From IMG/VR virus record IMGVR_UViG_3300042521_003679: a DNA stretch of 64,000 nucleotides, one strand, 5' to 3'. The notes under the pieces were generated by a model, which did not search any database, was not told the origin of the DNA, and worked only from the letters and a program-made list of their open reading frames with translations. Shown here piece by piece: positions 16,362 through 38,098 of the stretch. The position numbers and the translations under genes are program-made. Numbering within the stretch: the first letter of the stretch is position 1; each line of letters opens with the position of its first letter. The stretch is from an uncultured virus (IMG/VR IMGVR_UViG_3300042521_003679). Lineage: Duplodnaviria; Heunggongvirae; Uroviricota; Caudoviricetes.

Positions 16362-16553
16362 TTGGCAATAATGAAAATCATTTGGGCGGACCACGATCCT
16401 TCTTGGGGGGTTTCTAACCCTGCTTGGGATGAGCCCTCTTGGGAAGAAACAAAGGCTGAAGCAGCAAAGGCCAAAGAATCTTCCCCATCGGAAATCACGG
16501 AAGAAGCCGCCCAAGAAAAAAGCTCCTGGAAGGAGCCAAAAGGATTCGGTTGA
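16362..16553 (+). CDS. Hypothetical protein
   Basis: 63-aa ORF ending PKGFG. Confidence 0.5.
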   Translation: MAIMKIIWADHDPSWGVSNPAWDEPSWEETKAEAAKAKESSPSEITEEAAQEKSSWKEPKGFG

Positions 16554-16687
16554 TTGTTTATTGCCTACGGATAGCAATAGCCTGTGTGACTAAAAAGAGC
16601 CTGATAGAGACAGAACGCTAGAAACAGCGCGGATGCCACCTTTTTGGTGATGTCAACAAAATGGTTTTTCATAAGTTGATCGGACTA

Positions 16688-16921
16688 CTAGTCAGGAAAA
16701 CATTCTGCAACTGTGATGTCTCGATCCATTTGATCCGCGTGGTAAACGCAGGCGTGACTGGGCCAACGCAGGACATTTGATCGAACCTCTTCGACTTCAA
16801 TCGATGGTCGTTCGTCTTGAGCGATAGATAAACCAATGTCTTCAGCATCGTAATCATCATCGGCTACGACGTAACCGCGATACTGAAGCGTGACCAGAAA
16901 GATCTTCTTGTTGTTTTCCAT
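16688..16921 (-). CDS. Hypothetical protein
   Basis: Last gene of a leftward small-ORF array. Confidence 0.7.
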   Translation of the reverse strand: MENNKKIFLVTLQYRGYVVADDDYDAEDIGLSIAQDERPSIEVEEVRSNVLRWPSHACVYHADQMDRDITVAECFPD

Positions 16922-16941
16922 GAGGAAGGTAGTGATGTTGA

Positions 16942-17184
16942 TTACTGGGCTTCAAGCTCGTCAGCGATGGCAAGGAACTTGCGGCGAACGGCCTGTAAAT
17001 TGAGACGGATTGCCTCATTGGTATAGGTCTCGTACTCGCTTAAGTTTTCGGGCACCACCTGATCCGCAGCAGCTCGCAGGGCGGCGGCGGCAAAGCCTCG
17101 TGCTACTAGCCGAAACGGAGAGTCTGGGTCGGGGCAGCCACAGGCGGCCAGCACCGCCTGCGCGGCGGGGGAGAGGTTAGTCAT
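16942..17184 (-). CDS. 'LSPAAQAV / AAALR' family protein
   Basis: Paralog of 756-977; both end EAQ*. Confidence 0.8.
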   Translation of the reverse strand: MTNLSPAAQAVLAACGCPDPDSPFRLVARGFAAAALRAAADQVVPENLSEYETYTNEAIRLNLQAVRRKFLAIADELEAQ

Positions 17185-17426
17185 CGTAACTCCAGTACAG
17201 AACGAGCAATGTCAAGAAAAGTTTCTGGACTAAGGTAGTTCCAGTTGCTTTTGTTAAAGAGTTCAACTAGCTCTTCATCCGTCGGTTTCTGCGGCTCGGG
17301 CTGAACCAGGGCGGCTTGAGCGCGGGTCATTGCATCCGAACAGTACCCTTCCTTCAACTCCCAGGACCTGTAATGGCAACAAAGCTCTTGTAGCAACTCA
17401 GCGCACAGCGCTCGAAAGTCAGTCAT
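17181..17426 (-). CDS. 'MTDFRALCAEL / PEPQxPTDEE' family protein
   Basis: Shares PEPQxPTDEE block with 17637-17924. Confidence 0.75.
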   Translation of the reverse strand: MTDFRALCAELLQELCCHYRSWELKEGYCSDAMTRAQAALVQPEPQKPTDEELVELFNKSNWNYLSPETFLDIARSVLELR

Positions 17427-17640
17427 TGGGCAGAGCCTCCAGTTCAGCGGCGATGGCGTGAATATCACGATGAAGCTCCCACATTTCAACGCTCCACTTA
17501 ACGTTGATTAATTGATCCGCAACAACTCTAAGGGCGGCGGAGAGACCGTATAGGTCTTCTCCGTCAAGCGCGGCGTCACGAGCTTTCGAGCAGGCATCCA
17601 GCACCGCCTGTGCAGCGGGGGACAATGAATCGTTAGTCAT
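17419..17640 (-). CDS. 'LSPAAQAV / AAALR' family protein
   Basis: Third paralog. Confidence 0.8.
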   Translation of the reverse strand: MTNDSLSPAAQAVLDACSKARDAALDGEDLYGLSAALRVVADQLINVKWSVEMWELHRDIHAIAAELEALPND

Positions 17641-17924
17641 TGGCACCCCCAGCGGCGCAAGGCTGCGCGGATTGTGTCTCTTACTTCAGAATACAACGCG
17701 AAATACTCGCCCACATCGTCCCATAGTTGGTCAATTTCCTCATCCGTCGGCCCCTGCGGCTCGGGCTTGGTGTTCTGCTTCAGGAACTCCACCATCAAGC
17801 GATGGGCTTCACCAGCGTCAGCAATAAACTGGCCCCGATAGTGGAAGCCTTCTTTGTCGAGGCGAAGCACTTCTTCCGTTGGTGGAGAGTTGAACGTGAT
17901 GCAGTTGGTGAGTTGGTCAGTCAT
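17637..17924 (-). CDS. Hypothetical protein with PEPQGPTDEE module
   Basis: ATGA-coupled; shared module. Confidence 0.75.
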   Translation of the reverse strand: MTDQLTNCITFNSPPTEEVLRLDKEGFHYRGQFIADAGEAHRLMVEFLKQNTKPEPQGPTDEEIDQLWDDVGEYFALYSEVRDTIRAALRRWGCQ

Positions 17925-18007
17925 TAGTCTCTTTCTCTAAGCAGTGGCGATGATATAGGTGATGCAGATGAAAAGGACAATAATGACCAAGGCTTCCCAG
18001 GGTCCCA

Positions 18008-18142
18008 TCACTTGCCCTCCTTCCACTTGGCAGCATCACGCTCAGTTTGGCAGTTCTTGTCTTTGCCATAGAGCCATGCGGCAGTGCTCTGGCCGGGCTT
18101 CGGGCCGTTACGAGGAAGCTTGATCAAACGAGGTTCAGGCAT
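18008..18142 (-). CDS. Small hypothetical protein (44 aa)
   Basis: MPEPRLIKLPRNGPKPGQSTAAWLYGK...*; head of leftward array. Confidence 0.5.
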   Translation of the reverse strand: MPEPRLIKLPRNGPKPGQSTAAWLYGKDKNCQTERDAAKWKEGK

Positions 18143-18459
18143 GGTTGGTTGAGAGGCTCGCTCATTGTACACCCGCGTCAACATCCTCTCGAACGCTGTG
18201 CCAATTAAACAACTGTCACAAGCCCGCTTGACTTAAGTATTACAATCGTCCCGTGGCTGCTCTCCGGCATCTACGCGCCTGGGGACACCAGCCCGTTTCA
18301 GTCCCTGCGGCGCTTCTGGCCAAGGAGATCAATGGGAGGAAAATTTAGTTGGATTCTTAATAACCGTCTGTTATTGAGAATGCAAGTATCCTTCGCAAGC
18401 GCCATCGCGCGGGAGGCCCCCAGGCCGACCTTGTTCATGGCGCTTTAATTTCCTTTCCA

Positions 18460-18487
18460 TTGACTTCTTCTGAAAAATGACTATTGT
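18460..18487 (+). promoter_or_regulatory. Sigma70-type promoter
   Basis: TTGACT-N16-TATTGT upstream of 18558. Confidence 0.55.
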
Positions 18488-18557
18488 GGGAAGGCCGCTC
18501 GCGCAGGCGAGCCCTAGCGAGCTTGTTCAAGCGGCCTGTAGTTAATCTTCTTGATCA

Positions 18558-18800
18558 ATGCCCACAGCTCCTCTCGCTCCAGACAGACTCCCTCTGCTCG
18601 AGCACAATGGAACAACGATCGAGGTGTACCAGCACCATGGTTATTCCAGGCCCGACAGAGGCCCCCTGCCTCCCAGCAGAATCCTTTACGCTGCTCGTGA
18701 TCAAAATAACGAGCGCCATTGGAGAGGAAGCCTTGATGAAATCGAAAGCTTGATTGACCGAGGCTTTGTCGTGGCAACGATTAGCGGAGGCAGTCTGTGA
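18558..18800 (+). CDS. Hypothetical protein
   Basis: ATG ORF after promoter. Confidence 0.65.
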   Translation: MPTAPLAPDRLPLLEHNGTTIEVYQHHGYSRPDRGPLPPSRILYAARDQNNERHWRGSLDEIESLIDRGFVVATISGGSL

Positions 18801-19117
18801 TGGACAATGAAGAGCTGATCAGCCTCCTAAAGGAAATGGAAGCTATCAAAGCAAATCAACGCGCATTGTCCGAAAAGGAACAGCAATGCCGCGAAGATAT
18901 TTTTGCTCTCATGCAAGACCTTGGCATTGACCAAGAGAAAAGCAACTATGGCAACATTCGCCTGCAGCGTAGAGCAGAAAAGGACTATGGTGAAGCCATT
19001 AAAATGCTAGAGCGCCAATTGAAAGAAGCCAAAAAACTGGCTGATGACATGGGCGACTATCAAATTAAAGGCTACAAAGAAAGCCTTGTTTACACTCCCC
19101 CAGTTGAGCTGTTTTGA
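18797..19117 (+). CDS. Coiled-coil hypothetical protein
   Basis: Coupled ORF, 106 aa. Confidence 0.7.
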   Translation: MMDNEELISLLKEMEAIKANQRALSEKEQQCREDIFALMQDLGIDQEKSNYGNIRLQRRAEKDYGEAIKMLERQLKEAKKLADDMGDYQIKGYKESLVYTPPVELF

Positions 19118-19460
19118 CCGCACCATTAACCAAAGCGGAAGTCACTGCTCTTATTGATCAAAAGATAAGAGAGCATGAAATTCGCATTGGCGTGATTAGC
19201 GGCCTTGCGGGAGTCTTGTTTATCGCAGGACTCTCTTATTTTCTTTCCATTGTTTACCTTGCTACCATCAGATGAGCGCCCCATTTATTCCTTTACCATT
19301 GCTCTCTGACAGAGAGTGGAAAGAGCTAAATGTGTTGCGCAAAGCCATTAGCGACAGCCCTTCAGCGGTGGTGCCAGAGCAGCAAGAGCGTTTTGCTGCA
19401 TTGTTCGCTAGAAGCTTGCTTGGTAAAGGCGACAAGCCTTTAAAATGATTTTACTGCCCA

Positions 19461-20216
19461 TTGACCATGCCCCTTCCTGAAATTGACTTCCCGGACAAGG
19501 AGCAGCAATTGAAATATGGCGTGAAGGTGCTTCTGGAAGCTGGAATGACGCCTCAGCAAATTGAGCACATTCGCGACAGAGTGGGAGCAGGTCCGGGCAA
19601 GATTCCCTACACCAAAGAACTCACTGGATTGCGCCGGTATATGGTGCAGGAGCTTTTAGCGGCAAGTTTAAGCAACAGGCAAATTGCCGACATCTTGAAG
19701 CTAAGCAAAGAAACTGTTAGCGCCGATCGTCATCACAATCGCAACTTATGGACTGCTGAAATCCTTAAGAGCCAAGACACTTGGCGGGCACGGCTAATCA
19801 AAGAACAAGGCGAACTCAAAGACAAAGCCCTCGAAAGCTTTGAACACAGCAAGCGCAAGAAAGTCACCACTTACAAGGAAGGGCCTGACGGCCCTGGCGA
19901 AACCATTGTGCGTATGGAAGAAAGTGCTGGCGAAAGCGGCTTCCTTGGCATTGCCCGTAGCTGTCTGGAGCAGCAGGCAAAGCTAATTGGCCTGTTTGAT
20001 GTGAAGCCACAAACGGAAGAGAAGAGCGGCTACAAAGCATTCCTTGATAATTTAAGCAAGGAAGTTCGCAAAATAAAAGAAGCTGAAAGCAATAGTGAAG
20101 TTAGAGCCACTGCCATTGATGCTGAGGCTTATTTCGACGAACAAGGAGAGCCCACTGGTCCCAGCAAGCCTTTGCTATTCGCGAATAGCGAACAGGACGA
20201 TGGAGAGGAAAGTTAA
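19461..20216 (+). CDS. HTH protein, probable terminase small subunit
   Basis: LSNRQIADILKLSKETVSADR HTH; LEQQAKLIGL motif. Confidence 0.55.
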   Translation: MTMPLPEIDFPDKEQQLKYGVKVLLEAGMTPQQIEHIRDRVGAGPGKIPYTKELTGLRRYMVQELLAASLSNRQIADILKLSKETVSADRHHNRNLWTAEILKSQDTWRARLIKEQGELKDKALESFEHSKRKKVTTYKEGPDGPGETIVRMEESAGESGFLGIARSCLEQQAKLIGLFDVKPQTEEKSGYKAFLDNLSKEVRKIKEAESNSEVRATAIDAEAYFDEQGEPTGPSKPLLFANSEQDDGEES

Positions 20217-22537: not shown

Positions 22538-22692
22538 GCACCAAGGTGGCCTAAGGGACAATGGAGGAAACCAAGGGCGCTTCGCATGGGGCGCCTTTTT
22601 CTTTGGGCCTAGCCAGCTTTGTAACGAAAAGCAACTGAGCTCTTGCGAGATCCGGCTGGCTCGTTATCGTGCGCAGGCATCGCCTCTTAACC

Positions 22693-24344: not shown

Positions 24345-24436
24345 TTGTGACGATAAGCAACAGTGATCGTTCAGGGGCTGGCAACAGCCCCTTTTTGTCG
24401 TATTGTTCTCTCAGTCGGGCAGCGATGCCTCCTCTC

Positions 24437-24964
24437 ATGACCATCACCCTTGATTCCTTCCCCTCTGTTGATCGCTACGGCTTTCCCTTGCAAGTGTGCG
24501 GACGTTGCGGCGGCTCTGGCGAGCACAGCTACAACCAGCTCCATGGCAGCGTTTGCTACGGCTGTGATGGCCACGGCGTGCGCCACACCAAGAAGGCCCA
24601 CAAGGAATTTCAAGATTGGGCTTATGCCCTTAAGCGCCAGCGTGAAGCCATTGGCCATTCTTTGCAAGTGGGTGATGAACTGGCCATCCTTGAGGCTATA
24701 GGAGTGATGAGTACCAAAGTGGTTGGCTGGCATTCCATTGCTTCTATTGAAATCACCGACCAAGAATGTGGCTGGAGCATCACTCGCGCTCCTGATGGCA
24801 CCGAACTGCGCACTCCCACTTGCTGGACCATCATCATCACCTTTGACGATGGTGAGCGGGTGGAGGCCTCCACTAACAGCGTCTTCCGTAGGAAGGGCTG
24901 GGTGGATCCAGCTCCCTATGTAGAGCGCAGCCAAGTGAAGCGTCGCATCAAATCTAAAGTGTGA
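24437..24964 (+). CDS. Protein with DnaJ-type CxxCxGxG zinc finger
   Basis: CGRCGGSG...CYGCDGHG. Confidence 0.75.
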   Translation: MTITLDSFPSVDRYGFPLQVCGRCGGSGEHSYNQLHGSVCYGCDGHGVRHTKKAHKEFQDWAYALKRQREAIGHSLQVGDELAILEAIGVMSTKVVGWHSIASIEITDQECGWSITRAPDGTELRTPTCWTIIITFDDGERVEASTNSVFRRKGWVDPAPYVERSQVKRRIKSKV

Positions 24965-25054
24965 AGCATTGTTACAGGCCCCTTTCCCAGAGGCCTCTCT
25001 TGCTCTATTGTTCTTTCAACGAGCCGAGAGGCTCACTACCACGTTCTCAAGATC

Positions 25055-25697: not shown

Positions 25698-26024
25698 ATG
25701 AAAACCACTATGCGCCCCAAGGCAAGAGCGACCGTCCGCACCTTTCAAGACAACAGCCCCTACTTTCCTGCAACGAAGGGCTGCTACCAAGCAACGAGCC
25801 TTAAAGAGCTTCTGTTCCACACCAGACTGGCTATGGAAGACCGGGAAGATACCATTGCCATCTTTGATGCAGAAGGCTCTTGCAAGGGCCTCTGGAAGCT
25901 TTCCACAGAAGGGCATGTGGACAGCGCTGGTGATAGCATTGTCGACCACGAAGGCTACGAGCTGATGCGCCCTGATACGAAGGAGCAATGGATGTGGAAC
26001 AAGCTTGTGGAGGAAGTTAAATAA
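25698..26024 (+). CDS. Hypothetical protein
   Basis: 108-aa ORF. Confidence 0.7.
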   Translation: MKTTMRPKARATVRTFQDNSPYFPATKGCYQATSLKELLFHTRLAMEDREDTIAIFDAEGSCKGLWKLSTEGHVDSAGDSIVDHEGYELMRPDTKEQWMWNKLVEEVK

Positions 26025-26437
26025 TGGGCACTAACTATTTCTTGCATGCTCCTGCTTGCGAGCATTGCGGCAAAGAGCCGGAAGAGCCCCTGCACCTTGG
26101 CAAAAGCTCGGCAGGATGGTGCTTTGGCTTGCACGTGTACCCCGAAAAAGATTTACACAATTGGGGCGATATATGGAGCCATATTCATTACAGGGTGGAA
26201 GAAAAAGATTATGAAATCAGAAACGAGTATGGAGATTCCATTGATCCTGCTCTTTTCTTTTCCATTGTTTGGGATAGAAAAGGACGGTCAGAAAAGCTTT
26301 TCGACAAGAAATGGTTAGCAGCCAATCACGCTACGATTGGCCCTTGTGGGCTTGCCAGGCATGCCTTGTATCCTGGCCATTGCATTGGCCATGGTGGCGA
26401 CGGCCCTTTTGACTACATTATTGGAGAATTCTCGTGA
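26024..26437 (+). CDS. Conserved phage hypothetical protein
   Basis: MGTNY...LHLGKSSAGW.F...IRNEYG...EFS. Confidence 0.75.
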   Translation: MGTNYFLHAPACEHCGKEPEEPLHLGKSSAGWCFGLHVYPEKDLHNWGDIWSHIHYRVEEKDYEIRNEYGDSIDPALFFSIVWDRKGRSEKLFDKKWLAANHATIGPCGLARHALYPGHCIGHGGDGPFDYIIGEFS

Positions 26438-26756
26438 TACTGGTTGATTATTTCTCTGAAGCCTGCTGCAAGGGCACTGAACTCGTGGAAGGCTGGTATT
26501 GGTATGAAGACGATGGGGAAGAAGTGGGAGGGCCGTATGAAGATCAAGAACAGGCGATTGAAGCGGCAAACAATGGGAAAGGCTGGTGAGAACTGGCCAG
26601 TGTTGTAATTACTAAAAAAAAATGGAACTCGCCAGCTCGGTATAGTAAATTGTGGGCAAATGTCCCGGCCAAGGTTGTATTTAGGGTCCGGCTGCGAGTG
26701 TAACTGAGGTCCGGCTAGTGCTGTGTAACGCGCGCGGGCCCGGCTGCGCGCCTATA

Positions 26757-26875
26757 CGCGCGCACGCGCACCCACGCGCGCACGCGCGCCCACGCGCGCA
26801 CGCGCACCCACGCGCGCACGCGCGCCCACGCGCGCACGCGCACCCACGCGCGCACGCGCGCGCACGCGCGCACGC
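26757..26875. repeat. 18-bp tandem repeat CGCGCGCACGCGC(A/G)CCCA, about 6.5 copies
   Basis: A and G variants alternate (36-bp super-unit); no T on top strand 26756-26875. Confidence 0.95.
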
Positions 26876-26888
26876 TGAGCTGTGACGG

Positions 26889-27023
26889 GCTTGTGGGCGT
26901 CGTTGGGCGTCGTTGGGCGTCGTTGGTGCTTGTGGGGGCTTGTGGGGGCTTGTGGGGGCTTGTGGGGGCTTGTGGGCGTCGTTGCGTGCCGTTTCTGCGC
27001 GTTGGGCGTCGTTGCGTGTCGTT
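26889..27023. repeat. 10-bp tandem repeats CGTTGGGCGT and TGTGGGGGCT x4
   Basis: Four G5 runs at 26931-26970; no A on top strand 26886-27023. Confidence 0.95.
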
Positions 27024-27310
27024 AATGCGCGGTGCGTGCGTTTCGTTTGGCATGGGTCAGTGTGACGGAATGTTGCAGGTATCGAGCGCTTCGCCTTTCT
27101 CCTGGTAAAGGCTCGCGCTCCTTTCGCTGACTGATCAGCCTGGCTTATGGCAATCGAGGCATTCCTGGGATGCATGGCCTTTCTCCTTATCTGATCAGCG
27201 TAGCTTCTCGAAAGGAGGCGAAAGGCGCTCCTCTTATGAGCGCTCCTGATCGCTCCTTCTCGAAAGGCGCTCGAGGCCTTTATATGGGGAGGTCTTCGCC
27301 TTTCTCTCTC

Positions 27311-27745
27311 ATGGCCTCTCCTCTCCTCCCGGGCGAGAAGCGCGCTCCTCGCGCGCCTCGCCTTTCGCCTTCGCCCGTTCTCCCGGGTGAGCTCTCATGG
27401 CCAGTGCTCTCCTTCTCCTCGCTTGAGGAGGCGGAGGCCTTCGCGCTCATGCTCGAGAAGAACCTCGCGCTCCTCGAGGAGCGCTCCTCGCCTTTCTCCT
27501 TGCGCGCCGATGCGGAGGAGCTCGAGCTCGAAGCCGCCTCCTTTCTCTCAGCTCTCGAGCGTGAGCCTCGCCTGTGCTTAAGCGCGAAGGATCTGCAGAT
27601 GGGAGCCTTGCAATTGCGCGAGCGCGCAGCAGAGCTCCGCACAATCGCCGACAGGCGAGAGGCTCTGCAGGCTCAGCTCGAGGAGAGCCTCGAGGAGCTC
27701 GAAGCGCTCATGGCTGATCTGCGCTGGCCTCTCCTCGCTCGCTGA
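27311..27745 (+). CDS. Coiled-coil hypothetical protein in AC/GT-depleted island
   Basis: ATG after CT-rich leader; L/E/A/R/S-rich. Confidence 0.7.
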   Translation: MASPLLPGEKRAPRAPRLSPSPVLPGELSWPVLSFSSLEEAEAFALMLEKNLALLEERSSPFSLRADAEELELEAASFLSALEREPRLCLSAKDLQMGALQLRERAAELRTIADRREALQAQLEESLEELEALMADLRWPLLAR

Positions 27746-27778
27746 GCTCCTTCTCCTTCTCCTTTCTCCTTCTCTCCC

Positions 27779-28894
27779 ATGGCTTCTCCTTCTCTCCTCC
27801 TCGCTCCTCCTGCGGTTCGCTCGAAGGCGCCTCGCTCTCCTCGCGAGCACTCCTCGAACCTCGCGCAGTTTGGCCTGACAATCCCCGGCCTTCTCACTTC
27901 AGGAGCTGCGAACGCGAAGCTCGCGAAAGGCGAAGGCCTCGCCTTCTCCTCGCTCCTTCATATGCTCCCCGCGAAAGGCCTCGCGCGCGCGCTCACTCCG
28001 GACTCGCATGCTTGCAACGTAAGGAGCGAGCTCCCCGGCCTTCGCGAGCTCGCGATTCGTTTCGGGCTCCTCGAGCGCGCGCTCGCGCTTAACGCTTGCG
28101 CCTTCTCGAGCGATGCTTGCAGGGATCTGTGTCTCGCCTTCTCAGGCCATGGCGGGATCTCGACCAACTGTGCCTCCTGCAGGGCTCGAAGAATGCTCGC
28201 CTTTCTATGGGACTCAGAGGCCTTTATAAAGGCGCTCCTGTGGTCCGGAGGCCTCGCAGCGCGAAAGGCGCGCAAGCTTCGCCTCCCCTTCGCCTTGCGC
28301 CTGAATGGCACACAAGAACTTCCATGGCATGAGCGGAGCATGAGCGCGCGCCTTTCTCCCGAGGAGGCTCGAGGCCTTTCTCGCCTTTATGGGAGCACAA
28401 TCCCTTCCGGTAGGCTCACAATCCCCGAGGCCTTGCGCGATGCTCGAGGCGTCCATCTTTATGACTACGCAAAGGCGCCTCTCGCGCGCCTCCTCGCCAT
28501 GAGAGAAGCCGGAATTCACACCACTGCGAGCCTTGCGGCTGACGCACCAGGGGGAGCACTTCGCGCGCTCGAGGCCTCGAGGCATGGCTTCTCGATTGCC
28601 GTACCAATATTGCTTGCAAAGGGCGAGCCTCTCCCTGGTGAGCTCATGCTCACGGCTCCCGGAGGAGGCCTTGCGCGCCTTGATTGCATCGATGGGGACC
28701 TTAACGACCTGCGCATGCTCGATCGAGCGCCTCGAGCTGGCTTCTCAGGCCTCGCGGTATTGCTTCGCCTTAAGCGCTCGAGAGGCTCGAAGCCTGAGAG
28801 CGCGAAGGCCTTCGCGCTCGCTCCGCATGCTGACTGGCAGGAGCTCGCAGGAGGAGGCCTCGCGCGCTTCTCGGGCTTGGGGGAATGCTCATGA
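27779..28894 (+). CDS. GP88-like protein (Cx6Cx3C, radical-SAM-like)
   Basis: NAKLAK, CAFSSDACRDLCL..SGHG, LRLNGTQE, YDYAK, IDGDLNDLRMLD. Confidence 0.75.
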   Translation: MASPSLLLAPPAVRSKAPRSPREHSSNLAQFGLTIPGLLTSGAANAKLAKGEGLAFSSLLHMLPAKGLARALTPDSHACNVRSELPGLRELAIRFGLLERALALNACAFSSDACRDLCLAFSGHGGISTNCASCRARRMLAFLWDSEAFIKALLWSGGLAARKARKLRLPFALRLNGTQELPWHERSMSARLSPEEARGLSRLYGSTIPSGRLTIPEALRDARGVHLYDYAKAPLARLLAMREAGIHTTASLAADAPGGALRALEASRHGFSIAVPILLAKGEPLPGELMLTAPGGGLARLDCIDGDLNDLRMLDRAPRAGFSGLAVLLRLKRSRGSKPESAKAFALAPHADWQELAGGGLARFSGLGECS

Positions 28895-29079
28895 GCTCCT
28901 CCTCCTTCTCCTCGCTCGAGCTCCTTCTCCTTCTCCTCGCTCTCGAAGCTTTCGAGCCTGAGAGCATGCTCGAGGAGGAGCTTCTCGAAGGCCTTCTCGA
29001 AAGGCTCGAGCGCTCCTCTCCTCGCCTCCCCTTCTCCTCCTCTCGAGAAGCTCGCGCGCGCCTCCTGCGAGGCTCCTGA
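28891..29079 (+). CDS. Small low-complexity protein in AC/GT-depleted island
   Basis: ATGA-coupled to GP88-like gene; followed by terminator. Confidence 0.5.
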   Translation: MSSSSFSSLELLLLLLALEAFEPESMLEEELLEGLLERLERSSPRLPFSSSREARARLLRGS

Positions 29080-29103
29080 GAGCTCTCAGGCTGGTCCTGT
29101 TCC

Positions 29104-29135
29104 GAGGCCTCTCCTTCATATGGGGAGGCCTTTCT
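29104..29135 (+). terminator. Terminator hairpin closing the island
   Basis: GAGGCCTCTCC-TTCATAT-GGGGAGGCCTT. Confidence 0.65.
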
Positions 29136-29644
29136 CATGCGAAGGAGGGAGAATCTTTAATTTTATCGGTTGATCAGCGTTCTTAATTATTGCAAACCAT
29201 AAAATGGTATCAACGGCTACAGAATTGGCGACGGATTGGTGGTAGATTGGCTGCAGCGCAGTAGCACGGCAAAAAGTTTTACGGGGGTGCGGGGTATCCC
29301 AAAATTGATGACGGGATATTTTCAAACGACTTTTTCTGCCCAATATTTACACCCACTCCAACAATTTACGCACGTGCTTATAAAGCTAGTGCGCACTGCG
29401 CGAACGATCTAGTCTGCAATGCATTGGAGTGAGCGCATTAAGATTGTTCGCACCAAGGAAAGGCTTACGAGAAGAAGCCGCCCAAAGCGGCGTAGATTAA
29501 TGCCTTTCCCATAGATTTTTCTTAGTAATGCCGTTATGGCATAAATTATTGCTTAATTTTCATTTTTCTATTGCTGCTGCGCACACTTTCAGCGGCTCGA
29601 GGCTATTTACGAGCATTTAAGCAGAAGAAGAAAGTCGTTTAGGA

Positions 29645-29821
29645 GATGGTTGTTAGAAGAGGCCCTTGGAACAATCGCCTTGGGGGCTTCTGCGCGTATC
29701 GGGCCTCTGCGAAGGGAGCTTATGAAAGCTTTTCGAGAGGGCCAGGAGGAAGGTCGCTTGAAACAATCGCCTTGAGGGCTTTCTTCGCGAGGCGACCTTC
29801 CTTGCAGCGTTAACAACCATC
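29645..29821 (-). ncRNA. Candidate structured RNA or ssDNA element
   Basis: Outer 11-bp inverted repeat enclosing two hairpins with near-identical loops; strand inferred from TATGAT upstream on minus strand. Confidence 0.45.
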
Positions 29822-29988
29822 GTTAACTATTTCAGGCGGCTGCTGCGCCTATGCCTATCATATATCGGCCTGTGGGTCTTCTGCGACGGTTTTACTAGGG
29901 TTTTGGGCAATGAAGCTTAAAAATTAAAGAATTTCTTAACAATTCAATTGGGAATAAAGCGGCTATGCTGAAGCCTGCCCGAGAAGCC

Positions 29989-30228
29989 ATGAGCTACCAC
30001 GACCCCTTTGAAACGGTTTCGGAAGTACGTTCCGTATGGCGCATCCACACGCCCAGCAGGCGCTATAAGAACAAAGTGCTAGCAATGTTTGAGAAGCTCA
30101 TGCAACTGCCCAAAGCCAGCTTTTACAAAACCAGCTTTCCAAGATACGATGGTTATCAATTTGACCTCCTTTCCTTTTCCATTGATCATGGAGAAGAAAG
30201 CTTGTCTTCTTTTTACCCTGATTGGTGA
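29989..30228 (+). CDS. Hypothetical protein
   Basis: ATG ORF. Confidence 0.55.
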   Translation: MSYHDPFETVSEVRSVWRIHTPSRRYKNKVLAMFEKLMQLPKASFYKTSFPRYDGYQFDLLSFSIDHGEESLSSFYPDW

Positions 30229-30632
30229 TGGCTTATTCTCTTGAGGAGCTTTGTCGCCTCGCCACTAAATACGCCCTGTGTCCTGAAATGTCTGAACCTT
30301 CCCTTTCTGAGCTAAAGAAGCGCTTTGCTGGTTTTGAATGGTGCGCCGATAAAGCCACTGCCGCTGCTTTTGGTTATTACGCCGCCATGGAAGAAGCCAA
30401 TGGTAAGAAGACTATTACAAAAGGCATTCATGAGCAATGCTCGTCAGTAGTGGAAGAGGCGATAGAAGGGAAAATTGATTCGCTAGAAGCTACGGACAGA
30501 ATTCTCACTCTTGTACATTGCTGGCTTTGCGAAGAAATGATGGAAGACGAAGAAGAACTAGAGCAGCTTGATCTCCTGTTTGACCCCTTTTTGATCAGCA
30601 GAGATTTTGTCGAGAAATATCAACAAGATTAG
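30228..30632 (+). CDS. Hypothetical acidic protein
   Basis: Coupled ORF. Confidence 0.7.
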   Translation: MAYSLEELCRLATKYALCPEMSEPSLSELKKRFAGFEWCADKATAAAFGYYAAMEEANGKKTITKGIHEQCSSVVEEAIEGKIDSLEATDRILTLVHCWLCEEMMEDEEELEQLDLLFDPFLISRDFVEKYQQD

Positions 30633-31688: not shown

Positions 31689-31877
31689 ATGCTAGATGAT
31701 CTGCCAATGCCTTTCATGGCTGGAGCGATTAAGCTTTGGCCCGTTCACAGTCGCCCTGGCTATCAATGGTTCATTGCTTACGGAGGTAAGCCGTATTATT
31801 TCCGTGCAAAAAGCGAAGCGTTGCTTTTTGCTAGGGATCAGCAAAGTGGAAGTGATCCTGAAGGGCTTTGCGACTGA
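31689..31877 (+). CDS. Hypothetical protein
   Basis: Short ORF before RNR. Confidence 0.6.
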   Translation: MLDDLPMPFMAGAIKLWPVHSRPGYQWFIAYGGKPYYFRAKSEALLFARDQQSGSDPEGLCD

Positions 31878-31929
31878 GCTACAGTAAGGAGTGTTCGTTC
31901 GGCCCGCGCAAAGCGGGCTTTGTTGTCTC

Positions 31930-33360
31930 ATGAAGCTCAAAGAAAGCGCAAAGTGCGAAAAGATTGCTCGAACTGGACGAGTGGAGAGCTGGTTAAATGA
32001 TCCTGAGGGGCGCTTGGCCGTGAGTTGCACGGTGTTCGTCGTGGAAGATTCAATGGAAGGGCCAGATGGCATTGAGCAATCGTGGCGCTTTGTTTCCCAT
32101 GGCCTTCGTAATGGCGCTGGCGTGGCAGTGCATCTTTCCAACTTGCGTCCCAAAGGCCAAGAAAATGGCAAAGGGCTTGTTGCGAGTGGTCCACTCAGCT
32201 TTGGCAAAATCTATTCCACGCTCAATGAAATTCTGCGTCGTGGTGGCAAGTACAAAAATGGCGCTGTTGTTTTACATCTTGACTACGACCATCCCGATGC
32301 CATTGATTTGATCACTGCTCCGCGATCAGAATTTCCATGGGCAAAGCGCTGCATTGATGTGGATGAGCAATTTCTTGATAAATCTTCGCCTGAATTTATC
32401 AAAGCATTATGCCAAGGCATTTCCAGCGGAGATATTTGGCTCAATAAGATTCGCTATAACGAAAGAGGAGAACGCTTGCGTGGAAATGTCTGCCTCGAGA
32501 TTTATCTTCCTCATCGTGGCACTTGCCTTTTACAGCATGTCAATCTCGGTGCTTGTGGCATCAATGATGTAGAGCAAGCTTTCAAGGATGGCATGAAGCA
32601 ACTGTGTGAGCTTCATCCTTCCACTGGCGTGGGCGACACTGGCGAATACCTTTCGCCTTCCATTGACAAGCAAGTGGGGCTTGGCATTCTTGGTTTAGCT
32701 AATTTCCTTTCCATTCATGACATCTCCTACGAAGATTTTGGCAAAGCTTTGGAAGCTTATCTTGATGAGGATCCTCATCCTTGGTGCCATCATTGGACTG
32801 ATCAGCGTGCTGGCGACGCCGTAGCCGCCATTCAATTGGGCTTGCTTGGTGCTGCGGACATTGCCAGGCAGCATGGCATGGAACGTGCCTTTACCATTGC
32901 CCCCACTGCTTCATGCTCTTATAGGTATTTGGACTCTAGAGGCTTTACGACTGCTCCTGAAATCGCTCCTCCCATTGACCAAATTATTGACCGTGATAGC
33001 GAGACGATGGGTGTGGAAAGATTTGAATATGGGCCAGTGGAAATTGCAGAGCAAGTGGGCTGGGAAGCATTTAAGAAAGTAGCCGATGGCATTGTTGAGC
33101 TGATGCGCCGCACTGGTCTTTTCCATGGCTATTCCATGAACTGGTGGTCTGATATGACCGTTTGTGATGAAGCTTTTCTTCGCGAATGGCTTGCCAGTCC
33201 TCAATCGTCTATTTACTATGCGCTGCAAGTGCAATCAGGCACACAAGCAAAGGACGATGTTGGAGTAGACTTGGGAGAGAGTCTGGCCGACTTCTTTAGC
33301 TTGGACGAGCCTGAGGCTTGTTCTTTGGAAGCTGGCTTCTGTAGCGCCTGCGCAGAGTGA
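31930..33360 (+). CDS. Minimal ribonucleotide reductase catalytic subunit (cyanophage SP / class O-slash type)
   Basis: IARTGRV, VSCTVF, NVCLEI finger loop, TCLL, IAPTASCS, YY, C-terminal CSAC; about 476 aa. Confidence 0.9.
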   Translation: MKLKESAKCEKIARTGRVESWLNDPEGRLAVSCTVFVVEDSMEGPDGIEQSWRFVSHGLRNGAGVAVHLSNLRPKGQENGKGLVASGPLSFGKIYSTLNEILRRGGKYKNGAVVLHLDYDHPDAIDLITAPRSEFPWAKRCIDVDEQFLDKSSPEFIKALCQGISSGDIWLNKIRYNERGERLRGNVCLEIYLPHRGTCLLQHVNLGACGINDVEQAFKDGMKQLCELHPSTGVGDTGEYLSPSIDKQVGLGILGLANFLSIHDISYEDFGKALEAYLDEDPHPWCHHWTDQRAGDAVAAIQLGLLGAADIARQHGMERAFTIAPTASCSYRYLDSRGFTTAPEIAPPIDQIIDRDSETMGVERFEYGPVEIAEQVGWEAFKKVADGIVELMRRTGLFHGYSMNWWSDMTVCDEAFLREWLASPQSSIYYALQVQSGTQAKDDVGVDLGESLADFFSLDEPEACSLEAGFCSACAE

Positions 33361-33437
33361 GCCACGTTTAAGACAATGGGGCAGCAGTAGCTGCCCTTGT
33401 TTGTCGTCCTTTGTTTTTTACCATTGCTTCTTTTCAC

Positions 33438-34163
33438 ATGGCAGTTCTTGATTATTTTTCTGCAGTTGCCCGCAAGCGTCCTTGGCAAGCAGTGCCTGTT
33501 ACTAAAGGTGATTTTGTGGAAGGCTCCGAGGAAACGATTTTCCGCGCCCTTGCCATTCGTCACCTTGAACTGCCTGTGAAGGACATGCTTCTCGAGGGCC
33601 TAGAGCGGGAACTTCCTAACAGTCCTGGGCTTATTGAATCCATTCATAGCAATATGGCCGACGAAGAGCGTCATGACGAAGCTCTCAATTACGTTGCTGC
33701 TGCTCATGGCACAAATGAGCAATCGGAAAAAGAAGCTTTTCGGATTCGCCAAGCATGGATCGACCATCCAGCCCATCCAATTCTCAAGGTGGCAACAATT
33801 GAACGCAGTTTGTTTTTTACAATTTTGCCGTTCTTTCGTTTCAATGGCGACAAAGGGTTGAGGACTGTTGCTAGTGACATTTCTCGCGATGAAATATGCC
33901 ACTCGTTTTGCAATACCAAGATTGCGGAGGAGTCTGGGGAGGAATACAGCAGCAGTCTGAACAAGCTCAGAAAAATGACGGCGCTGTGGATTTACGATAA
34001 GCTTGATTCTTCGTCCAATAAATACTTGGACAAAGATTTTTGGCTTCGCCAAAGTGATAGCCTTTTTCTCAGCGGTAAAGCCCCAGAATTGCAAGAAACT
34101 CGTGCCAGTACAGTGCCAGCGTTTTTTGAAACGAATGCGCTGAATTTACCGTCCTATGGTTGA
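33438..34163 (+). CDS. Ferritin-like RNR small subunit
   Basis: ELPV, DEERH, E, DEICH carboxylate/His motifs; adjacent to catalytic subunit. Confidence 0.85.
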   Translation: MAVLDYFSAVARKRPWQAVPVTKGDFVEGSEETIFRALAIRHLELPVKDMLLEGLERELPNSPGLIESIHSNMADEERHDEALNYVAAAHGTNEQSEKEAFRIRQAWIDHPAHPILKVATIERSLFFTILPFFRFNGDKGLRTVASDISRDEICHSFCNTKIAEESGEEYSSSLNKLRKMTALWIYDKLDSSSNKYLDKDFWLRQSDSLFLSGKAPELQETRASTVPAFFETNALNLPSYG

Positions 34164-34405
34164 GTGGGCTTTTCCGACTTATCTGCTCTACAGTAGTCTG
34201 TGACAGAGGCCAAGCCCCTGTTTGAGCCGCTTGCGGCTGTTCACGCTTGGCCCATCTCTTGCTACGATTGTCAAGCAGCGCACGGACTGGAAATTTCTGG
34301 TCGTTGCGTTTGTAAACTAAGTCCTGCTTGCAGGCCGGGAGAGTTGATCGCCTCCTGCAGTCCTCCCCCTAAGCCTCTTAACAATGCTTAAATTTGGGGG
34401 TCACT

Positions 34406-34473
34406 GGCCCTGAAGTGTTGGCACACGTCATGCAGATAGCATGGAATACTGGGTTCGATTCCCGGCAGCGCCC
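34406..34473 (+). tRNA. Atypical tRNA-like element (GAT at anticodon position)
   Basis: Acceptor GGCCCTG/CAGCGCC (one mismatch), 4-nt D-loop, CAGATAG loop, T-arm CTGGG-TTCGATT-CCCGG. Confidence 0.5.
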
Positions 34474-34488
34474 TTTTCGTTAATCCCT

Positions 34489-35049
34489 ATGAGCGCCTTC
34501 GTTATTGGAGATAGCCACTGGGGACACGCCAAAAGCTTGTCTTTTGTCCAGCCCGATGGCTCCCCATTGCGTCCTTTTTCTTCGTGCGAAGAGATGGATG
34601 AGACAATGGTGGAGCGGTGGAATGCAGTGGTCAAGGACAAGGACACTGTTTACCATCTTGGCGACGTAGCAATTCCGCGTAGTGGGCTAAAAAACTTAGC
34701 CAGATGCAATGGGAGAAAGATTCTTATTCGCGGCAATCACGACACGTTCAAGCTCAAAGACTACGCCGAGTATTTTGAAGACATTCGCGGGGCCATGTTT
34801 CACCATGCAGGCAAGGCATTGCCAGGTGGTCTTATTTTCACGCACATTCCAGTGCATCCCGACAATCTTCGTGGGCACTATCTAGGTAATGTTCACGGAC
34901 ACCTTCACTGCCATCTAGTGATAAAAGATGGGCAAGTTGATCAACGATTTTTCAATGCCTGCGTTGAGAGGAACGATTTCACTCCTGTAGCATTGGATTT
35001 GATCGTCGATCACTTCCGCACCAATGTCCGAGGAGCGGCGAACTTTTAA
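34489..35049 (+). CDS. Calcineurin-like metallophosphoesterase
   Basis: DSHWGH, HLGDV, GNHD, THIP, HGHLH. Confidence 0.9.
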   Translation: MSAFVIGDSHWGHAKSLSFVQPDGSPLRPFSSCEEMDETMVERWNAVVKDKDTVYHLGDVAIPRSGLKNLARCNGRKILIRGNHDTFKLKDYAEYFEDIRGAMFHHAGKALPGGLIFTHIPVHPDNLRGHYLGNVHGHLHCHLVIKDGQVDQRFFNACVERNDFTPVALDLIVDHFRTNVRGAANF

Positions 35050-35224
35050 CACGCCGTTGCGTGAGCCTCTCAATCCCATCATCCATCGTCTTCTTCAAGC
35101 CATTGATTGGCACAATTCCCGCTATTTCGAGGATCATGATCCTTGGCACTTGGAAAAAGCGGAAAGCTTGCGAAGCTATGTGAGAGAACTAAAAAACTGG
35201 GTGAAGAAAAAAGAAGAAGGGTGA
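35024..35224 (+). CDS. Hypothetical protein
   Basis: FNTPLREP.NPII...ID.H...WH pattern. Confidence 0.7.
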   Translation: MSEERRTFNTPLREPLNPIIHRLLQAIDWHNSRYFEDHDPWHLEKAESLRSYVRELKNWVKKKEEG

Positions 35225-35415
35225 GGCAGAGTTTTCCCGCATTAGGGAATCAATGGGTGCGGCCCATGCTCTGCCTTGTTGTGAGTGCTTCAACTCACTC
35301 ACGGAATCCCCAAAGCCAACAGTGACGAGGATGTTGGAGCGGGGAGAGCCTGAGCCCTCCCTTGGTATGAATACCACTAGGCGCCTAGTGGGCTCCTGCA
35401 GGAAGCTTGCAAAGC
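35224..35415. ncRNA. Candidate structured RNA (chain of hairpins)
   Basis: Several consecutive stems, including a three-way junction at 35224-35276. Confidence 0.35.
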
Positions 35416-35546
35416 TTAGCAGACTTCCGTCCAATACACGGCGGCTCCTTCTAGGAACAATCGCCTATTTACATGCCGAGCTTCGTGGAATGGCACTTCC
35501 CATGTTTCCCGCTTTCCATGGCGAGAAAAGAACAAACGTACCACGA

Positions 35547-35723
35547 TCAATCAGCAGTTGCAGCGGTGAGTTCCCTGTATTCCTCTTCCCATTGCCTCAT
35601 TGCTGCCCTTGCAAGCCTCGCTTCTTCGCTATTGGGGCCATATAGCCTGCCGCTCTCTTCAACGGCTCTAGAGGCTTCCATGGCGAACTCCCAGGCTTCT
35701 TCCGCAGCGCGTAACAGGGCCAT
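35547..35723 (-). CDS. Small hypothetical protein (58 aa)
   Basis: MALLRAAEEAWEFA...TAATAD*. Confidence 0.55.
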   Translation of the reverse strand: MALLRAAEEAWEFAMEASRAVEESGRLYGPNSEEARLARAAMRQWEEEYRELTAATAD

Positions 35724-35749
35724 GGAGAAGAAGGAGGGTTGTCATTAGT

Positions 35750-35926
35750 TTAGCCTTGCAAGTTTTTCATTGCTTTCACCACTTTCTCGGCTTCCCTAAG
35801 TTTGGGCAAAAGCGTAGGCTTATAGGCGTGTTCTGCCGCAAGAAGCTGCAAAGCCGTTTGCCTGTCGGCTTCAAGCAGGGCAAGGATAAAAGCCAGTTCC
35901 TTGCTGGAAAGTTCAACGCCAATCAT
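35750..35926 (-). CDS. Small hypothetical protein (58 aa)
   Basis: MIGVELSSKELAFILALLE...*. Confidence 0.55.
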   Translation of the reverse strand: MIGVELSSKELAFILALLEADRQTALQLLAAEHAYKPTLLPKLREAEKVVKAMKNLQG

Positions 35927-35975
35927 TTTTCAACAACAGTGAAAACAGTGTGATTGGTGAAAATTCTAAAGGCAA

Positions 35976-37355
35976 TTAACGGACTAAGCTATTGATCCAA
36001 TCGATATTATCGTCCTTGGAAGCATCAAGCACTGCTGCCGCAAGCGCAAAGCAATAATCGTCAACGCCTGATTCTTTACCACCAGTTACGGCCCATTGAC
36101 CACTTGCTCGATACAGCACGCTGAGGTTTTTAAGCTGCCAAATAAGTTTCTTATGCGGGTAGAGTTCAATCAATCCCGCGTTAAACAATTCTCGAACCTT
36201 GCTGAATGCCTTCATTTTTGTCGAGACCGACCAAGCGAGCTCTGAAATTGGAAAGTCTTTTGATAGGTCTTGAATGATGGCGGAGCTATTAAATTGGTCA
36301 AGCGTAATGCTCTGAAATTCGTAAAGGCGATGGTGCTCCTTAATCCATTCCTCCACCTTCGCGATGCTTACTTCCTTCTTTCCGCCAATTTCAAAATCAG
36401 CTTCGAACGTATGTAGCTTGTCCAGGATTAATCGCTGCCCTTCGTAGTGGATGATGCAGGCAATGTATTCATCTCTGCCCACGCCACCACGCGCAGGGTC
36501 TAGAGAAAGAAAGTAGGTGCCCATAAGCTCTCTTTTGGGAGGCAAGACAGATCGATCTTTGTTGACGGCAATATCCACCACTTCAGGGGCAAGCAGCACT
36601 GAGTTGTTGGCTCTAAATTGAGCGCCAAATTCTACATAAAAAGTCTCTTCATCTTTCTTTCTTGCTCTAGTAAGAAAGTCGCAATCAAAGGGAAGCGACG
36701 GGTTAATTTCCCAAGTAGGAATTTGCAGGGCTTGCATACCTGGAAACTCACCACTTTGCGCTTGCTTGAAATGGTCAAAAAAGACACCTGACGTAAGATA
36801 AGGTGAAGAAAGCTCGATAATTTTTCCGTGTTTGCCAAACTGAGCAATGGAAGGCGCGAGTGCCGTGTACATTGCTTCTGCACCTCTATTTGCGTCTCCT
36901 TCTATAGAAAATGCCAGCTCATCTTGGATCAAGGCTACAACTGCTTTGCCACGAGATGCGCGAGCCGATGCAGGAATAGCCTGGAAAACACAACCATTTT
37001 TGATCTCAATTTCCAAGCTTGTTTCCCTTATTATTTCTTGCTCAAATGGGCTATTAAGAATTAGTTGGCGTATATTGTCAAGGGCAATTTTAGACTGGCC
37101 GAGGTCATTAGCTACGGCAATAACATACCATTTTTCACCCTTTCTTACCTTGCGCGTAAAATACTCATCTTGGGCGAAACACATGTACAGTGCTGCAACT
37201 GCCGCACAAAAAGTTTTCCCACTACGCCTGCCGAGCGCCCAGATAGCATGATTGATATTTTTTTCAAATAGATTATTGAGGATTTCTTGTTGCTTGGGCC
37301 ATAGCTCCACGCCAAGTGCGTGCTCTGCGAATTCCGAACAGCGAAGTTGAGTCAT
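35976..37355 (-). CDS. terL: Terminase large subunit
   Basis: GRRSGKT Walker A, LIQDE Walker B, LSSP, SLDPA and DDY nuclease motifs. Confidence 0.92.
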   Translation of the reverse strand: MTQLRCSEFAEHALGVELWPKQQEILNNLFEKNINHAIWALGRRSGKTFCAAVAALYMCFAQDEYFTRKVRKGEKWYVIAVANDLGQSKIALDNIRQLILNSPFEQEIIRETSLEIEIKNGCVFQAIPASARASRGKAVVALIQDELAFSIEGDANRGAEAMYTALAPSIAQFGKHGKIIELSSPYLTSGVFFDHFKQAQSGEFPGMQALQIPTWEINPSLPFDCDFLTRARKKDEETFYVEFGAQFRANNSVLLAPEVVDIAVNKDRSVLPPKRELMGTYFLSLDPARGGVGRDEYIACIIHYEGQRLILDKLHTFEADFEIGGKKEVSIAKVEEWIKEHHRLYEFQSITLDQFNSSAIIQDLSKDFPISELAWSVSTKMKAFSKVRELFNAGLIELYPHKKLIWQLKNLSVLYRASGQWAVTGGKESGVDDYCFALAAAVLDASKDDNIDWINSLVR

Positions 37356-38098
37356 TGCAACTGCTGGACAATTCGCCCCGTCCAACCTTTATGTTGTTTA
37401 GCACTTCCATTCACTACCCTGTCCAAGCATGAATTTGTTAGCTTGTATTGCTTAGAAAAATCAAATAAGTTTTCCGTCATGTACACTTCACCGTTTGGGT
37501 CGATAAGTTCGTAAAGATATTTTTGGCTTTTTAATTTGCTCATGGCCCTGCCCTTAGATGTGGCGCGATAGGCGCGTTGTTTCTCGGAGATTTTAGACCT
37601 CGCCTCGGGAGAATGATTTTTGCCCCACATGGGATTCCTTTCTCCTCGTATTAAGTCGCCGCCAGCGGTGGGATTAAGATGCCCTTTCCAGCGGCCCTCT
37701 TTTTGGCGTTGTTTGCGAATTTTCTCCTTGGTCTCCATACTCACAATTTTTCCCTTGTTCGCCTTGGAAATTTTGAGGCGAGCCTCTTCTGAGTGAATCA
37801 TTCCAGATGCGCCCTCGCCCCCATTGCTTTGATTGCGAAGAATTCCTGTGCCTAAATCAATACGCCCATAATGCGCAATGTAGATACATTCCCAGTCAAA
37901 AGCCTCTTGCTCTGTTAACTGAGTGCGTAAAAATACAATTTTGCTTCTATCAACTGGAAGCTGTATTCTTCTGTTTTTAGACCACGCTCTTTTCCCGCTT
38001 CCCTTGCCGATGTAATATGGGCTTCCTTTCTTGCCGTGCTGAGAGTCCACGCTTCTGAGAAAAGCGTAGATATAAAATCGCCGCTCATTCTTGCTCAT
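37352..38098 (-). CDS. Free-standing GIY-YIG homing endonuclease with NUMOD3-like repeats
   Basis: FYIYAF...PYYIGKG; N..NGGEG; HSEEARLKIS, HSPEARSKIS. Confidence 0.85.
   Translation of the reverse strand: MSKNERRFYIYAFLRSVDSQHGKKGSPYYIGKGSGKRAWSKNRRIQLPVDRSKIVFLRTQLTEQEAFDWECIYIAHYGRIDLGTGILRNQSNGGEGASGMIHSEEARLKISKANKGKIVSMETKEKIRKQRQKEGRWKGHLNPTAGGDLIRGERNPMWGKNHSPEARSKISEKQRAYRATSKGRAMSKLKSQKYLYELIDPNGEVYMTENLFDFSKQYKLTNSCLDRVVNGSAKQHKGWTGRIVQQLQ

Follow-up and report, generated by a model that had tools for sequence, protein, structure and literature searches.

A repeat block in an uncultured freshwater cyanosiphovirus genome, read as one strain's version of a non-coding control region before a swappable cassette

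In the 64,000-nt stretch of IMG/VR virus record IMGVR_UViG_3300042521_003679 that was analysed here (the window), which comes from an uncultured freshwater cyanosiphovirus, a conspicuous repeat block occupies a 580-nt gap with genes of the same strand on both sides. We give about an even chance to the reading that this block is one strain's version of a fast-evolving non-coding control region – a promoter or operator – standing before a swappable gene cassette, with minisatellites filling the spacer or leader. Judged by comparison with the sequences of relatives, the conserved part of the block is an array of tandem units and not the striking repeats; its most eye-catching features, a run without T and a run without A together with motifs of Z-DNA and G-quadruplex (G4) type, are strain-specific expansions.

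Under this reading, the interval 26.62-27.17 kb would be the control region at the head of a swappable cassette that is poor in AC and GT steps and carries a GP88-family gene. Its functional core would be the tandem ~22-nt promoter-associated units, which would act in transcription as probable binding sites of a putative, most likely host-encoded factor just upstream of -10-like hexamers. Between array and cassette would lie a hypervariable operator/leader slot, which in about half of the relatives appears to carry host LexA operators and other tandem motifs. In the window's lineage this slot would have been filled by two replication-slippage minisatellites, one of T-free 18-mers, which look like an expanded YAYRCGCR element of the relatives, and one of A-free 10- and 30-mers. 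Rightward transcription would pass through these repeats, which would serve as spacer or as 5' leader of the cassette transcript, their copy number varying between strains; their propensity for Z-DNA and G4 may tune expression, the exact repeat sequence not being the conserved thing. If the reading is true, widespread uncultured lake cyanosiphoviruses share a modular control element in three parts, namely a typed ~22-nt unit array, a hypervariable repeat slot often bearing host SOS boxes, and a swappable cassette. This would open a route to how lytic cyanophages read host stress signals, and an approach to the roles of the GP88, DUF7178 and DUF7227 proteins.

The open reading frame (ORF) of 137 aa just upstream of the block was used as a query and recovered 38 IMG/VR loci; removal of duplicates and of two loci ending at the ORF left 28 distinct relatives with at least 600 nt downstream. 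A tandem array follows the ORF in 27 of the 28 (all but L038), so that repeat blocks do recur at the same position in relatives, a check that an earlier note on this DNA had proposed. The relatives' arrays comprise 2-6 units with a period of 21-23 nt (31-33 nt in L014, L028, and L039), always on the gene strand and whatever the cassette, and an HNH or methylase gene is sometimes inserted between the 137-aa ORF and the array. The units fall into discrete types, A, B, and three minor ones. Type A (GGnCCGGCT-N7-GTAT) is present in the window and in L006, L007, L008, L010, L012, L013, L017, L020, L029, L030, L035, and L042, and type B (GGACTTGCTGAAAnGCGGTAA) in L011, L016, L018, L024, L026, L031, L037, and L040. 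Homology of the flanks to the closest relatives stops near 26540-26590 and restarts at 29142-29180, with 2.0-3.4 kb of other sequence between. The earlier note had singled out three copies of GGYCCGGCT, which are found at 26685, 26708, and 26737 on the plus strand only, with none elsewhere in the 64 kb, and which belong to units 2-4 of the window's five. Their number alone is not rare, as at least three copies occur in 10 of 100 shuffles of the 64 kb; the motif owes its weight to being clustered and conserved in relatives.

IMG/VR was also scanned for two adjacent type-A units, which yielded 80 loci with DNA. Arrays are present in 31 of these, 26 of them homologous to the window at 23.5-29.8 kb, and among the 49 loci without arrays only L105 is homologous to it; the array is therefore a property of this phage clade at this map position. 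A two-unit pattern gave 17 matches in species-representative genome contigs, none homologous to the window and none cyanobacterial, and the array is not a feature of species-representative bacterial genomes. A 4.4-kb 'Planctomyces' contig from a metagenome-assembled genome has four units at 21-nt spacing and is probably a mis-binned piece of phage.

Units are found at other sites as well. A position-weight matrix was built from 30 type-A units, with one out-of-register unit (self-score -12.6) dropped for the pattern-scan loci and the shuffle control. Six matches in the window score at least 10, four in the array and two at 22604 and 22647, compared with 0-3 in each of 10 block shuffles. The latter pair follows a terminator-like hairpin (Table 1), and its second unit contains TATCGT and ends 27 nt before an ATG at 22695; the same order of hairpin, units, and gene is seen in G004 (at 49845) and G003 (at 5513). 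In L105, a stop codon and the following start are separated by a gap that two units fill, and the related Synechococcus phage S-CBS4 has a single unit, also intergenic. Two full arrays 2.2 kb apart are present on one contig (L100/L101; L101 281-493 and 2498-2681), and after each come 10-nt tandem repeats and a separate cassette, with DUF7222 and DUF7227 in the first case and GP88 in the second. Outside the array, units lie only in intergenic gaps in front of genes. Because the units are gene-proximal and strand-specific and travel with cassettes, a promoter or an activator/operator fits better than a replication origin. Hexamers of the form TAnnnT (TATAGT, TATAAT, TATTAT), read by eye, are often present in the last unit or in all of them, and -10-only promoters of this form are common in picocyanobacteria.

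The known systems compared here are lambda operators, iteron plasmids, T4 PeSL cassettes, L5 stoperators, and the T5 injection stop signal (iss). Phage lambda has promoter-operator clusters at two loci, OR and OL, each with three 17-bp sites spaced by about 23-24 bp. The arrays resemble them in having several similar sites at a spacing of about two helical turns, in intergenic positions before genes and at more than one locus per genome, and in having discrete unit types that are exchanged among close relatives. They differ in that the units are asymmetric direct repeats and not palindromes, that no cognate repressor gene is linked or, in the five genomes compared, co-varies, and that no lysogeny module was seen in the window. 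Like T4-type PeSL elements, the regulatory module travels with its cassette and marks recombination boundaries (the double array of L101, and a motif at 24959 and 27060 of the window, see below), whereas its sequence and architecture are different, with no stem-loop and with tandem units followed by a long repeat slot.

The slot between array and cassette contains unrelated tandem repeats in every relative, with units of 8, 10, 16, 18, 23-27, 34, 40, or 49 nt in 2-22 copies. The cyanobacterial LexA/SOS box is a 14-nt sequence, RGTACNNNDGTWCB / AGTACWNWTGTACT, as given in PMC3091678, and the LexA-like boxes reported here are matches to that pattern. There are 25 such sites in the 300-nt stretches after the arrays (8.1 kb in all) compared with 2 in the remaining 248 kb, an enrichment of ~380-fold that marks the slot as an operator region. 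Boxes lie in the slots of 14 of 26 relatives, 1-4 in each, at 28-167 nt after the array, and are often two in tandem flanking a TATAGT hexamer (Table 1). In this respect the relatives are like LexA-controlled promoters, and the window's block is unlike them, having its T-free and A-free arrays in place of the boxes. These matches suggest that in many relatives of this apparently lytic phage group the cassette is under SOS control. The second repeat set of L101 consists of five tandem perfect half-sites of HLR1, the RpaB motif (from PMC6525291); the window has three HLR1 matches at 2 mismatches, none of them in the block. Given the LexA-like boxes and the HLR1 half-sites, the slot is operator-like and is filled differently by lineage.

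In the window the slot is occupied by the repeats that drew attention to the block, and every sequence detail of the earlier note was recovered where the note had placed it; statistically, the block stands out. The T-free run is 120 nt long, with the next longest in the window 38 nt, and is formed by an 18-nt unit repeated 6.7 times in which two variants alternate (94% matches). The A-free run extends for 138 nt, with the next longest, 50 nt, lying within the AC/GT-poor island downstream. Both runs result from the base composition of the units that were amplified. Purines and pyrimidines alternate perfectly over 31 nt, and all six alternating runs of at least 14 nt in the window lie in the block, the other five being 17-19 nt long. 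Four G5 runs start at 26934, 26944, 26954, and 26964. With a canonical G4 defined as four runs of G3 or more with loops N1-7, and both strands scanned, the two motifs of Table 1 are the only ones on either strand of the 64 kb; likewise, the four top-scoring tandem-repeat rows of the whole window all fall in the block. The block is enriched in AC and GT steps (rho 1.96 and 1.23), of which the island has fewer than expected (0.34 and 0.19). The complementarity of a left CGCCCAC to a right GTGGGCG is present as noted, but the fold is not unusually stable (RNA fold z = +0.74; 73 of 100 shuffles fold equally well or better). The same score leads us to reject a specific long hairpin that would pair the T-free arm with the A-free arm.

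Conservation of these arrays is confined to a single relative. L006 is the only relative that has the window's T-free and A-free arrays; in it, the flanks are about 98% identical over 3 kb, including a 54-nt gap, and the 18-mer is present 9.7 times, three more than in the window, within a T-free run of 174 nt; both copy numbers come from short-read assemblies and their absolute values are unconfirmed. The 18-mer array is thus a minisatellite in the sense that copy number differs between near-identical strains, and the restriction to L006 together with the three additional 18-mers is the pattern that slippage-driven minisatellites leave in a tolerant spacer. A 30-mer spanning the T-free/A-free junction is found in only two IMG/VR contigs and in no metagenome contig. 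A G4 motif is present in the slot of L006 only, with none in the 27 other relatives scanned; the Z-DNA-prone and G4 motifs are real as predicted from sequence but are not conserved. The T-free 18-mer reads as two YAYRCGCR-type 8-mers plus CC, shifted to G+C, and 14-27-nt alternating elements, TATGCGCA/TACACGCA, occupy the relative place of the T-free array in 8 of 25 other relatives, being the only alternating run, or one of two, in those loci. Alignment of the A-free block to L008 and L012 gives clear homology only over 27043-27083, which is no more than suggestive of an origin of the A-free arrays from single-copy seeds.

A coding role for the repeats was considered and rejected. All six frames are open over them since stop codons need both T and A, so the ORFs are open by composition, and the ORFs over the repeats match no protein family. 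Seven of the eight minus-strand ORFs over slots have no match among PHROG families, that of L033 giving a weak match to an unnamed family, and Rfam finds nothing in the block.

Several points weigh against a promoter or operator. A scan for sigma-70 consensus elements (-35 and -10 spaced 16-18 nt; 26000-30300) finds no promoter in the block, the 5' box of the units is too near the -10-like hexamer for a normal -35, and a period of 21-23 nt, the textbook spacing of iterons, leaves too little room for several polymerases at a time. The region was in no RNA run in a search of sequencing runs. No LexA box is present in the window's block, and the single match in the window (35529) is at chance level, so that operator function in the window would be by analogy with the relatives. 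The cumulative GC-skew minimum falls 1-5 kb after the array in all four near-complete relatives, as an origin might have it. Moreover, no phage protein co-varies with array type beyond a tail module in the five genomes compared, and the analysis yielded no protein that binds the units; between G003 (type B) and G004 (type A) the primase-helicase is 96% identical, a helix-turn-helix protein 94%, and the early proteins mostly 80-99%. On these five genomes, there are hints that a putative host factor reads the units. The type-B genomes G003 (31692-36611) and G007 have in common a tail-protein module (31-37% identity) with no match in the three type-A genomes, and this module may link array type to host range. 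PMC2532724 gives the promoter of SigF, a group 3 sigma factor, in Synechocystis as -32 TAGGC and -12 GGTAA. By eye, type-B units hold GCGGTAA, for which the unit before supplies TAAGG-like pentamers, and the window's type-A units have GTAT or GTAA at a spacing shorter than that of these SigF elements; the GGTAA of type-B units is a lead only.

The alternative that survives best is an iteron-type replication origin, which we hold to be unlikely but live; the earlier note had listed an origin among its possibilities. In it, the ~22-nt repeats would be the binding sites of an initiator (the phage primase-helicase or else a host factor), with the neighbouring repeats as an unwinding or structural element. 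The array is indeed iteron-like: the window's five units, and the 3-6 direct ~20-nt repeats in one orientation found generally, match in number and in their ~22-nt period the iterons of lambda ori, P1 oriR, and R6K/RK2. It stands at the end of the replication/early gene block, the window ORFs scanned include a primase-helicase but no polymerase gene, and in 11 of 26 relatives A+T makes up 60% or more of the 60 nt that follow the array. Unlike iteron origins, however, the arrays are without DnaA boxes (none in 27 loci), a consistent AT-rich element, or a linked initiator. The window's own 60 nt are only 15% A+T, no initiator co-varies with unit type in the five genomes compared, as the nearly identical primase-helicases of G003 and G004 illustrate, and the skew minimum falls in the C-rich cassette itself in the relatives and at 39 kb in the window. 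Units standing singly or in pairs before genes elsewhere, and two full arrays 2.2 kb apart in one relative, also argue against an origin.

Somewhat less probable again is a broader function in which the slot is a programmable bank of repeats that bind proteins or form structures, with a lineage-specific load that either ties the cassette (GP88, DUF7178, or DUF7227) to the physiology of the host or titrates its regulators during genome replication. The loads would be LexA boxes, HLR1/RpaB half-sites, 10-49-nt units, or Z-DNA- and G4-prone minisatellites, and array types would follow the host and not a phage protein, in keeping with the two type-B genomes sharing only the tail module. A decoy role, in which the slot sites are a sponge that soaks up DNA-binding proteins of the host (LexA, RpaB, or a defence factor) while the genome multiplies, is improbable; the window's GC-rich arrays would then be decoys for a putative factor. 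The up to four LexA-like boxes per slot, the five HLR1 half-sites of L101, and the multiple copies, about 2-22, of unrelated units in every relative's slot are what such a sponge might look like, but ordinary operators explain the same sites equally, the window's units match no known factor, and nothing specific speaks for a decoy. As to the earlier note's proposal of a decoy for the factor that the island avoids, the island's depletion is a broadly restricted vocabulary involving many k-mers and not one motif, it is not aimed at block motifs, and block and island share an enrichment of CGCG/GCGC.

An injection-stop or packaging signal at a fixed genome end, similar to the T5 iss or to pac/cos, finds no support and is very improbable. 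The resemblance to T5 consists of repeat-rich non-coding DNA beside early-type genes. Against it, the contigs of four relatives that are 98-100% complete are cut at four different map positions, so that the distance from the start of the contig to the array is 69.4 kb in G003, 29.5 kb in G004, 48.2 kb in G005, and 55.9 kb in G007. Moreover, G002 (95% complete) wraps across its ends with the distance from primase to ORF kept (11,602 versus 11,684 nt). None of the five has end repeats by IMG/VR class (these being contig and not virion ends). Taken with the lack of DnaA boxes, there is therefore no sign of a fixed first-entering end, and the terminase genes are 9-11 kb away. Unlike the T5 iss, the array is gene-proximal, in genomes whose assemblies behave as circular.

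Least credible is an assembly artefact, with repeats mis-assembled or chimeric: short-read contigs break within the repeats in four of four runs examined and the two assemblies differ in copy number (6.7 versus 9.7), but the unique junctions on both sides and the T-free/A-free junction recur with 0 mismatches in independent data as well as in two IMG/VR contigs. Specifically, Logan contigs of all four lake-water runs examined (X5, X7, X9, and X11) match both flanks, confirming that the block is present in independent runs, and contigs of three of them (X5, X7, and X9) contain the junction, 26832-26957, with 0 mismatches. As all contigs break within the repeats, copy number is not confirmed.

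The cassette that follows the block varies among relatives. GP88 homologues occupy the same slot in L008, L012, L013, L014, L026, L035, L040, and L042, and the other payloads are DUF7178 in L017 and L025 and DUF7227 in L010. Islands poor in AC and GT are found in L004, L024, L026/L027, L037, L042, and L095, but arrays and repeat slots also stand before cassettes of ordinary composition (L008, L012, L013, L014, L017, L020, and others), so the tie between block and island that the earlier note had drawn is not upheld. For the function of GP88, neither a PDB profile search nor NCBIfam returned anything and a protein atlas gave only GP88 clusters; a literature search for PF17338 found no mention of it, and hhalign found no relation of GP88 to DUF7227 or DUF7178. 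BLASTP of the low-complexity first ORFs of cassettes, whose frames are uncertain, gave nothing usable. The GP88 homologues of L008, L012, and L014 (302-304 aa) appear ordinary in composition, and the window's island (27081-29140) is rich in CTC/GAG; in several lineages the same gene family seems to have been recoded with a very limited nucleotide vocabulary. After the island, 29140-29960 comprises about 800 nt that are 91-97% conserved in close relatives and have no ORF of at least 90 aa, and a sigma-70-like promoter (10/12, with TG) on the minus strand at 29213-29186 points back into the island.

Upstream of the first cassette ORF, the sequence matches relatives over a short boundary element, the core of which, GTGTGAMGSAWYGTTRCAGG, is present twice in the window (Table 1); no shuffle of 100 gives two matches. 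Position 24959, where the second copy starts, is also the start of homology blocks to many relatives, and GTGTGAMGSAWYGTTRCAGG is likely a recombination linker at two mosaic boundaries, serving module exchange. The untranslated elements that follow the first copy resemble, by eye and unscored, 49-nt repeats of L007, L008, L012, and L014 as well as sequences of L020 and L042.

Table 1. Positions of the block, its neighbours, and other features in the window, with LexA-like palindromes of relatives.
Feature	Position	Strand	Details
Tandem unit array	26624..26759	+	Five ~22-29-nt units; type-A consensus GGnCCGGCT-N7-GTAT
Unit 0	26624-26648	+	Ends in GGTATAGTAA; TATAGT -10-like hexamer at 26641-26646
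Units 1-4	start near 26661, 26684, 26707, 26736	+	GGYCCGGCT copies in units 2-4
T-free minisatellite	26756..26875	+	18-nt unit x6.7, made of YAYRCGCR-type 8-mers
Z-DNA-prone tract (by sequence)	26845..26875		31-nt purine/pyrimidine alternation, CG/CA type
A-free block	26886..27023	+	Three tandem arrays
A-free array 1	26894-26926	+	TGGGCGTCGT x3.3 (10-nt unit)
A-free array 2	26928-26976	+	GCTTGTGGGG x4.9 (10-nt unit)
A-free array 3	26973-27031	+	30-mer x2.0
G4 motif (by sequence)	26934..26976	+ (sense strand)	Four G5 runs, 5-nt loops
Second, weaker G4 motif	26887-26917	+ (sense strand)	Canonical pattern
Module-boundary element	27050..27080	+	28/31 nt match in L008 and L012 only
Boundary core GTGTGAMGSAWYGTTRCAGG	27060-27079	+	Window's cassette starts, and its sequence diverges, right after
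Second copy of core GTGTGAMGSAWYGTTRCAGG	24959-24978	+	At stop codon of ORF 24347-24964
Untranslated stretch before first cassette ORF	27081..27169	+	ATCAGC...CTTATG...AGGCAT elements
First ORF of AC/GT-poor cassette (P0001, 191 aa)	27170..27745	+	No family match; frame uncertain, low-complexity DNA
GP88-family gene (P0002, 371 aa)	27779..28894	+	Pfam PF17338 E=2e-6; phrog_1617 E=5e-20
Second unit site	22573..22668	+	Terminator-like hairpin 22573-22598, then units 22604-22625 and 22647-22668
137-aa ORF just upstream of block	26024-26437		Query for relatives
Primase-helicase	14340-16322		Pfam/PHROG scans
Ribonucleotide reductase	31891-34163		Pfam/PHROG scans
Large terminase	35976-37385	minus	Pfam/PHROG scans
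Tape-measure protein	54946-59427		ORF/Pfam/PHROG scans
LexA-like palindromes just after array	L008 5354-5399, L010 6865-6894, L013 1928-2040, L020 7634-7663		Match to pattern from PMC3091678
Further LexA-like palindromes after array	L025 6968-6997, L031 4458-4541, L040 6716-6775, others		Match to pattern from PMC3091678

The gene content of the window is that of a siphovirus, as seen in ORF, Pfam, and PHROG scans; in addition to the genes of Table 1, those scans identify genes for a portal, a protease, and a major head protein, and for a Sak-like annealing protein, an exonuclease, and thymidylate synthase. S-CBS4 is a relative, its major head protein being 88.5% identical and its primase-helicase 56.7%, and 5 kb around the block is present in 24 lake-water metagenome runs; from the S-CBS4-like proteins and the lake-water occurrence, the window phage is an uncultured freshwater cyanosiphovirus, with a genome of about 70-74 kb. 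An identical 36-kb IMG/VR record was also found, and a megablast search of 25.5-30.5 kb against a phage collection gave no match. The S-CBS4 record (L043 29200-29421 / L044 1-352) appears to be cut inside coding sequence, and its ends are therefore an arbitrary linearisation.

Some further features of the window lie away from the block. About 3 kb after the primase-helicase gene (16322-19461) is without an ORF of at least 120 aa. A homing-endonuclease-like ORF at 37352-38098 on the minus strand, with matches to group I intron endonucleases and HNH, overlaps the start of the large terminase gene, and a second HNH gene is situated among the head genes at 46544-47413. An abiF RNA motif (Rfam) at 34365-34401, scoring 52.6 bits against a gathering score of 37, lies directly upstream of a tRNA-Ile gene (34406-34473).

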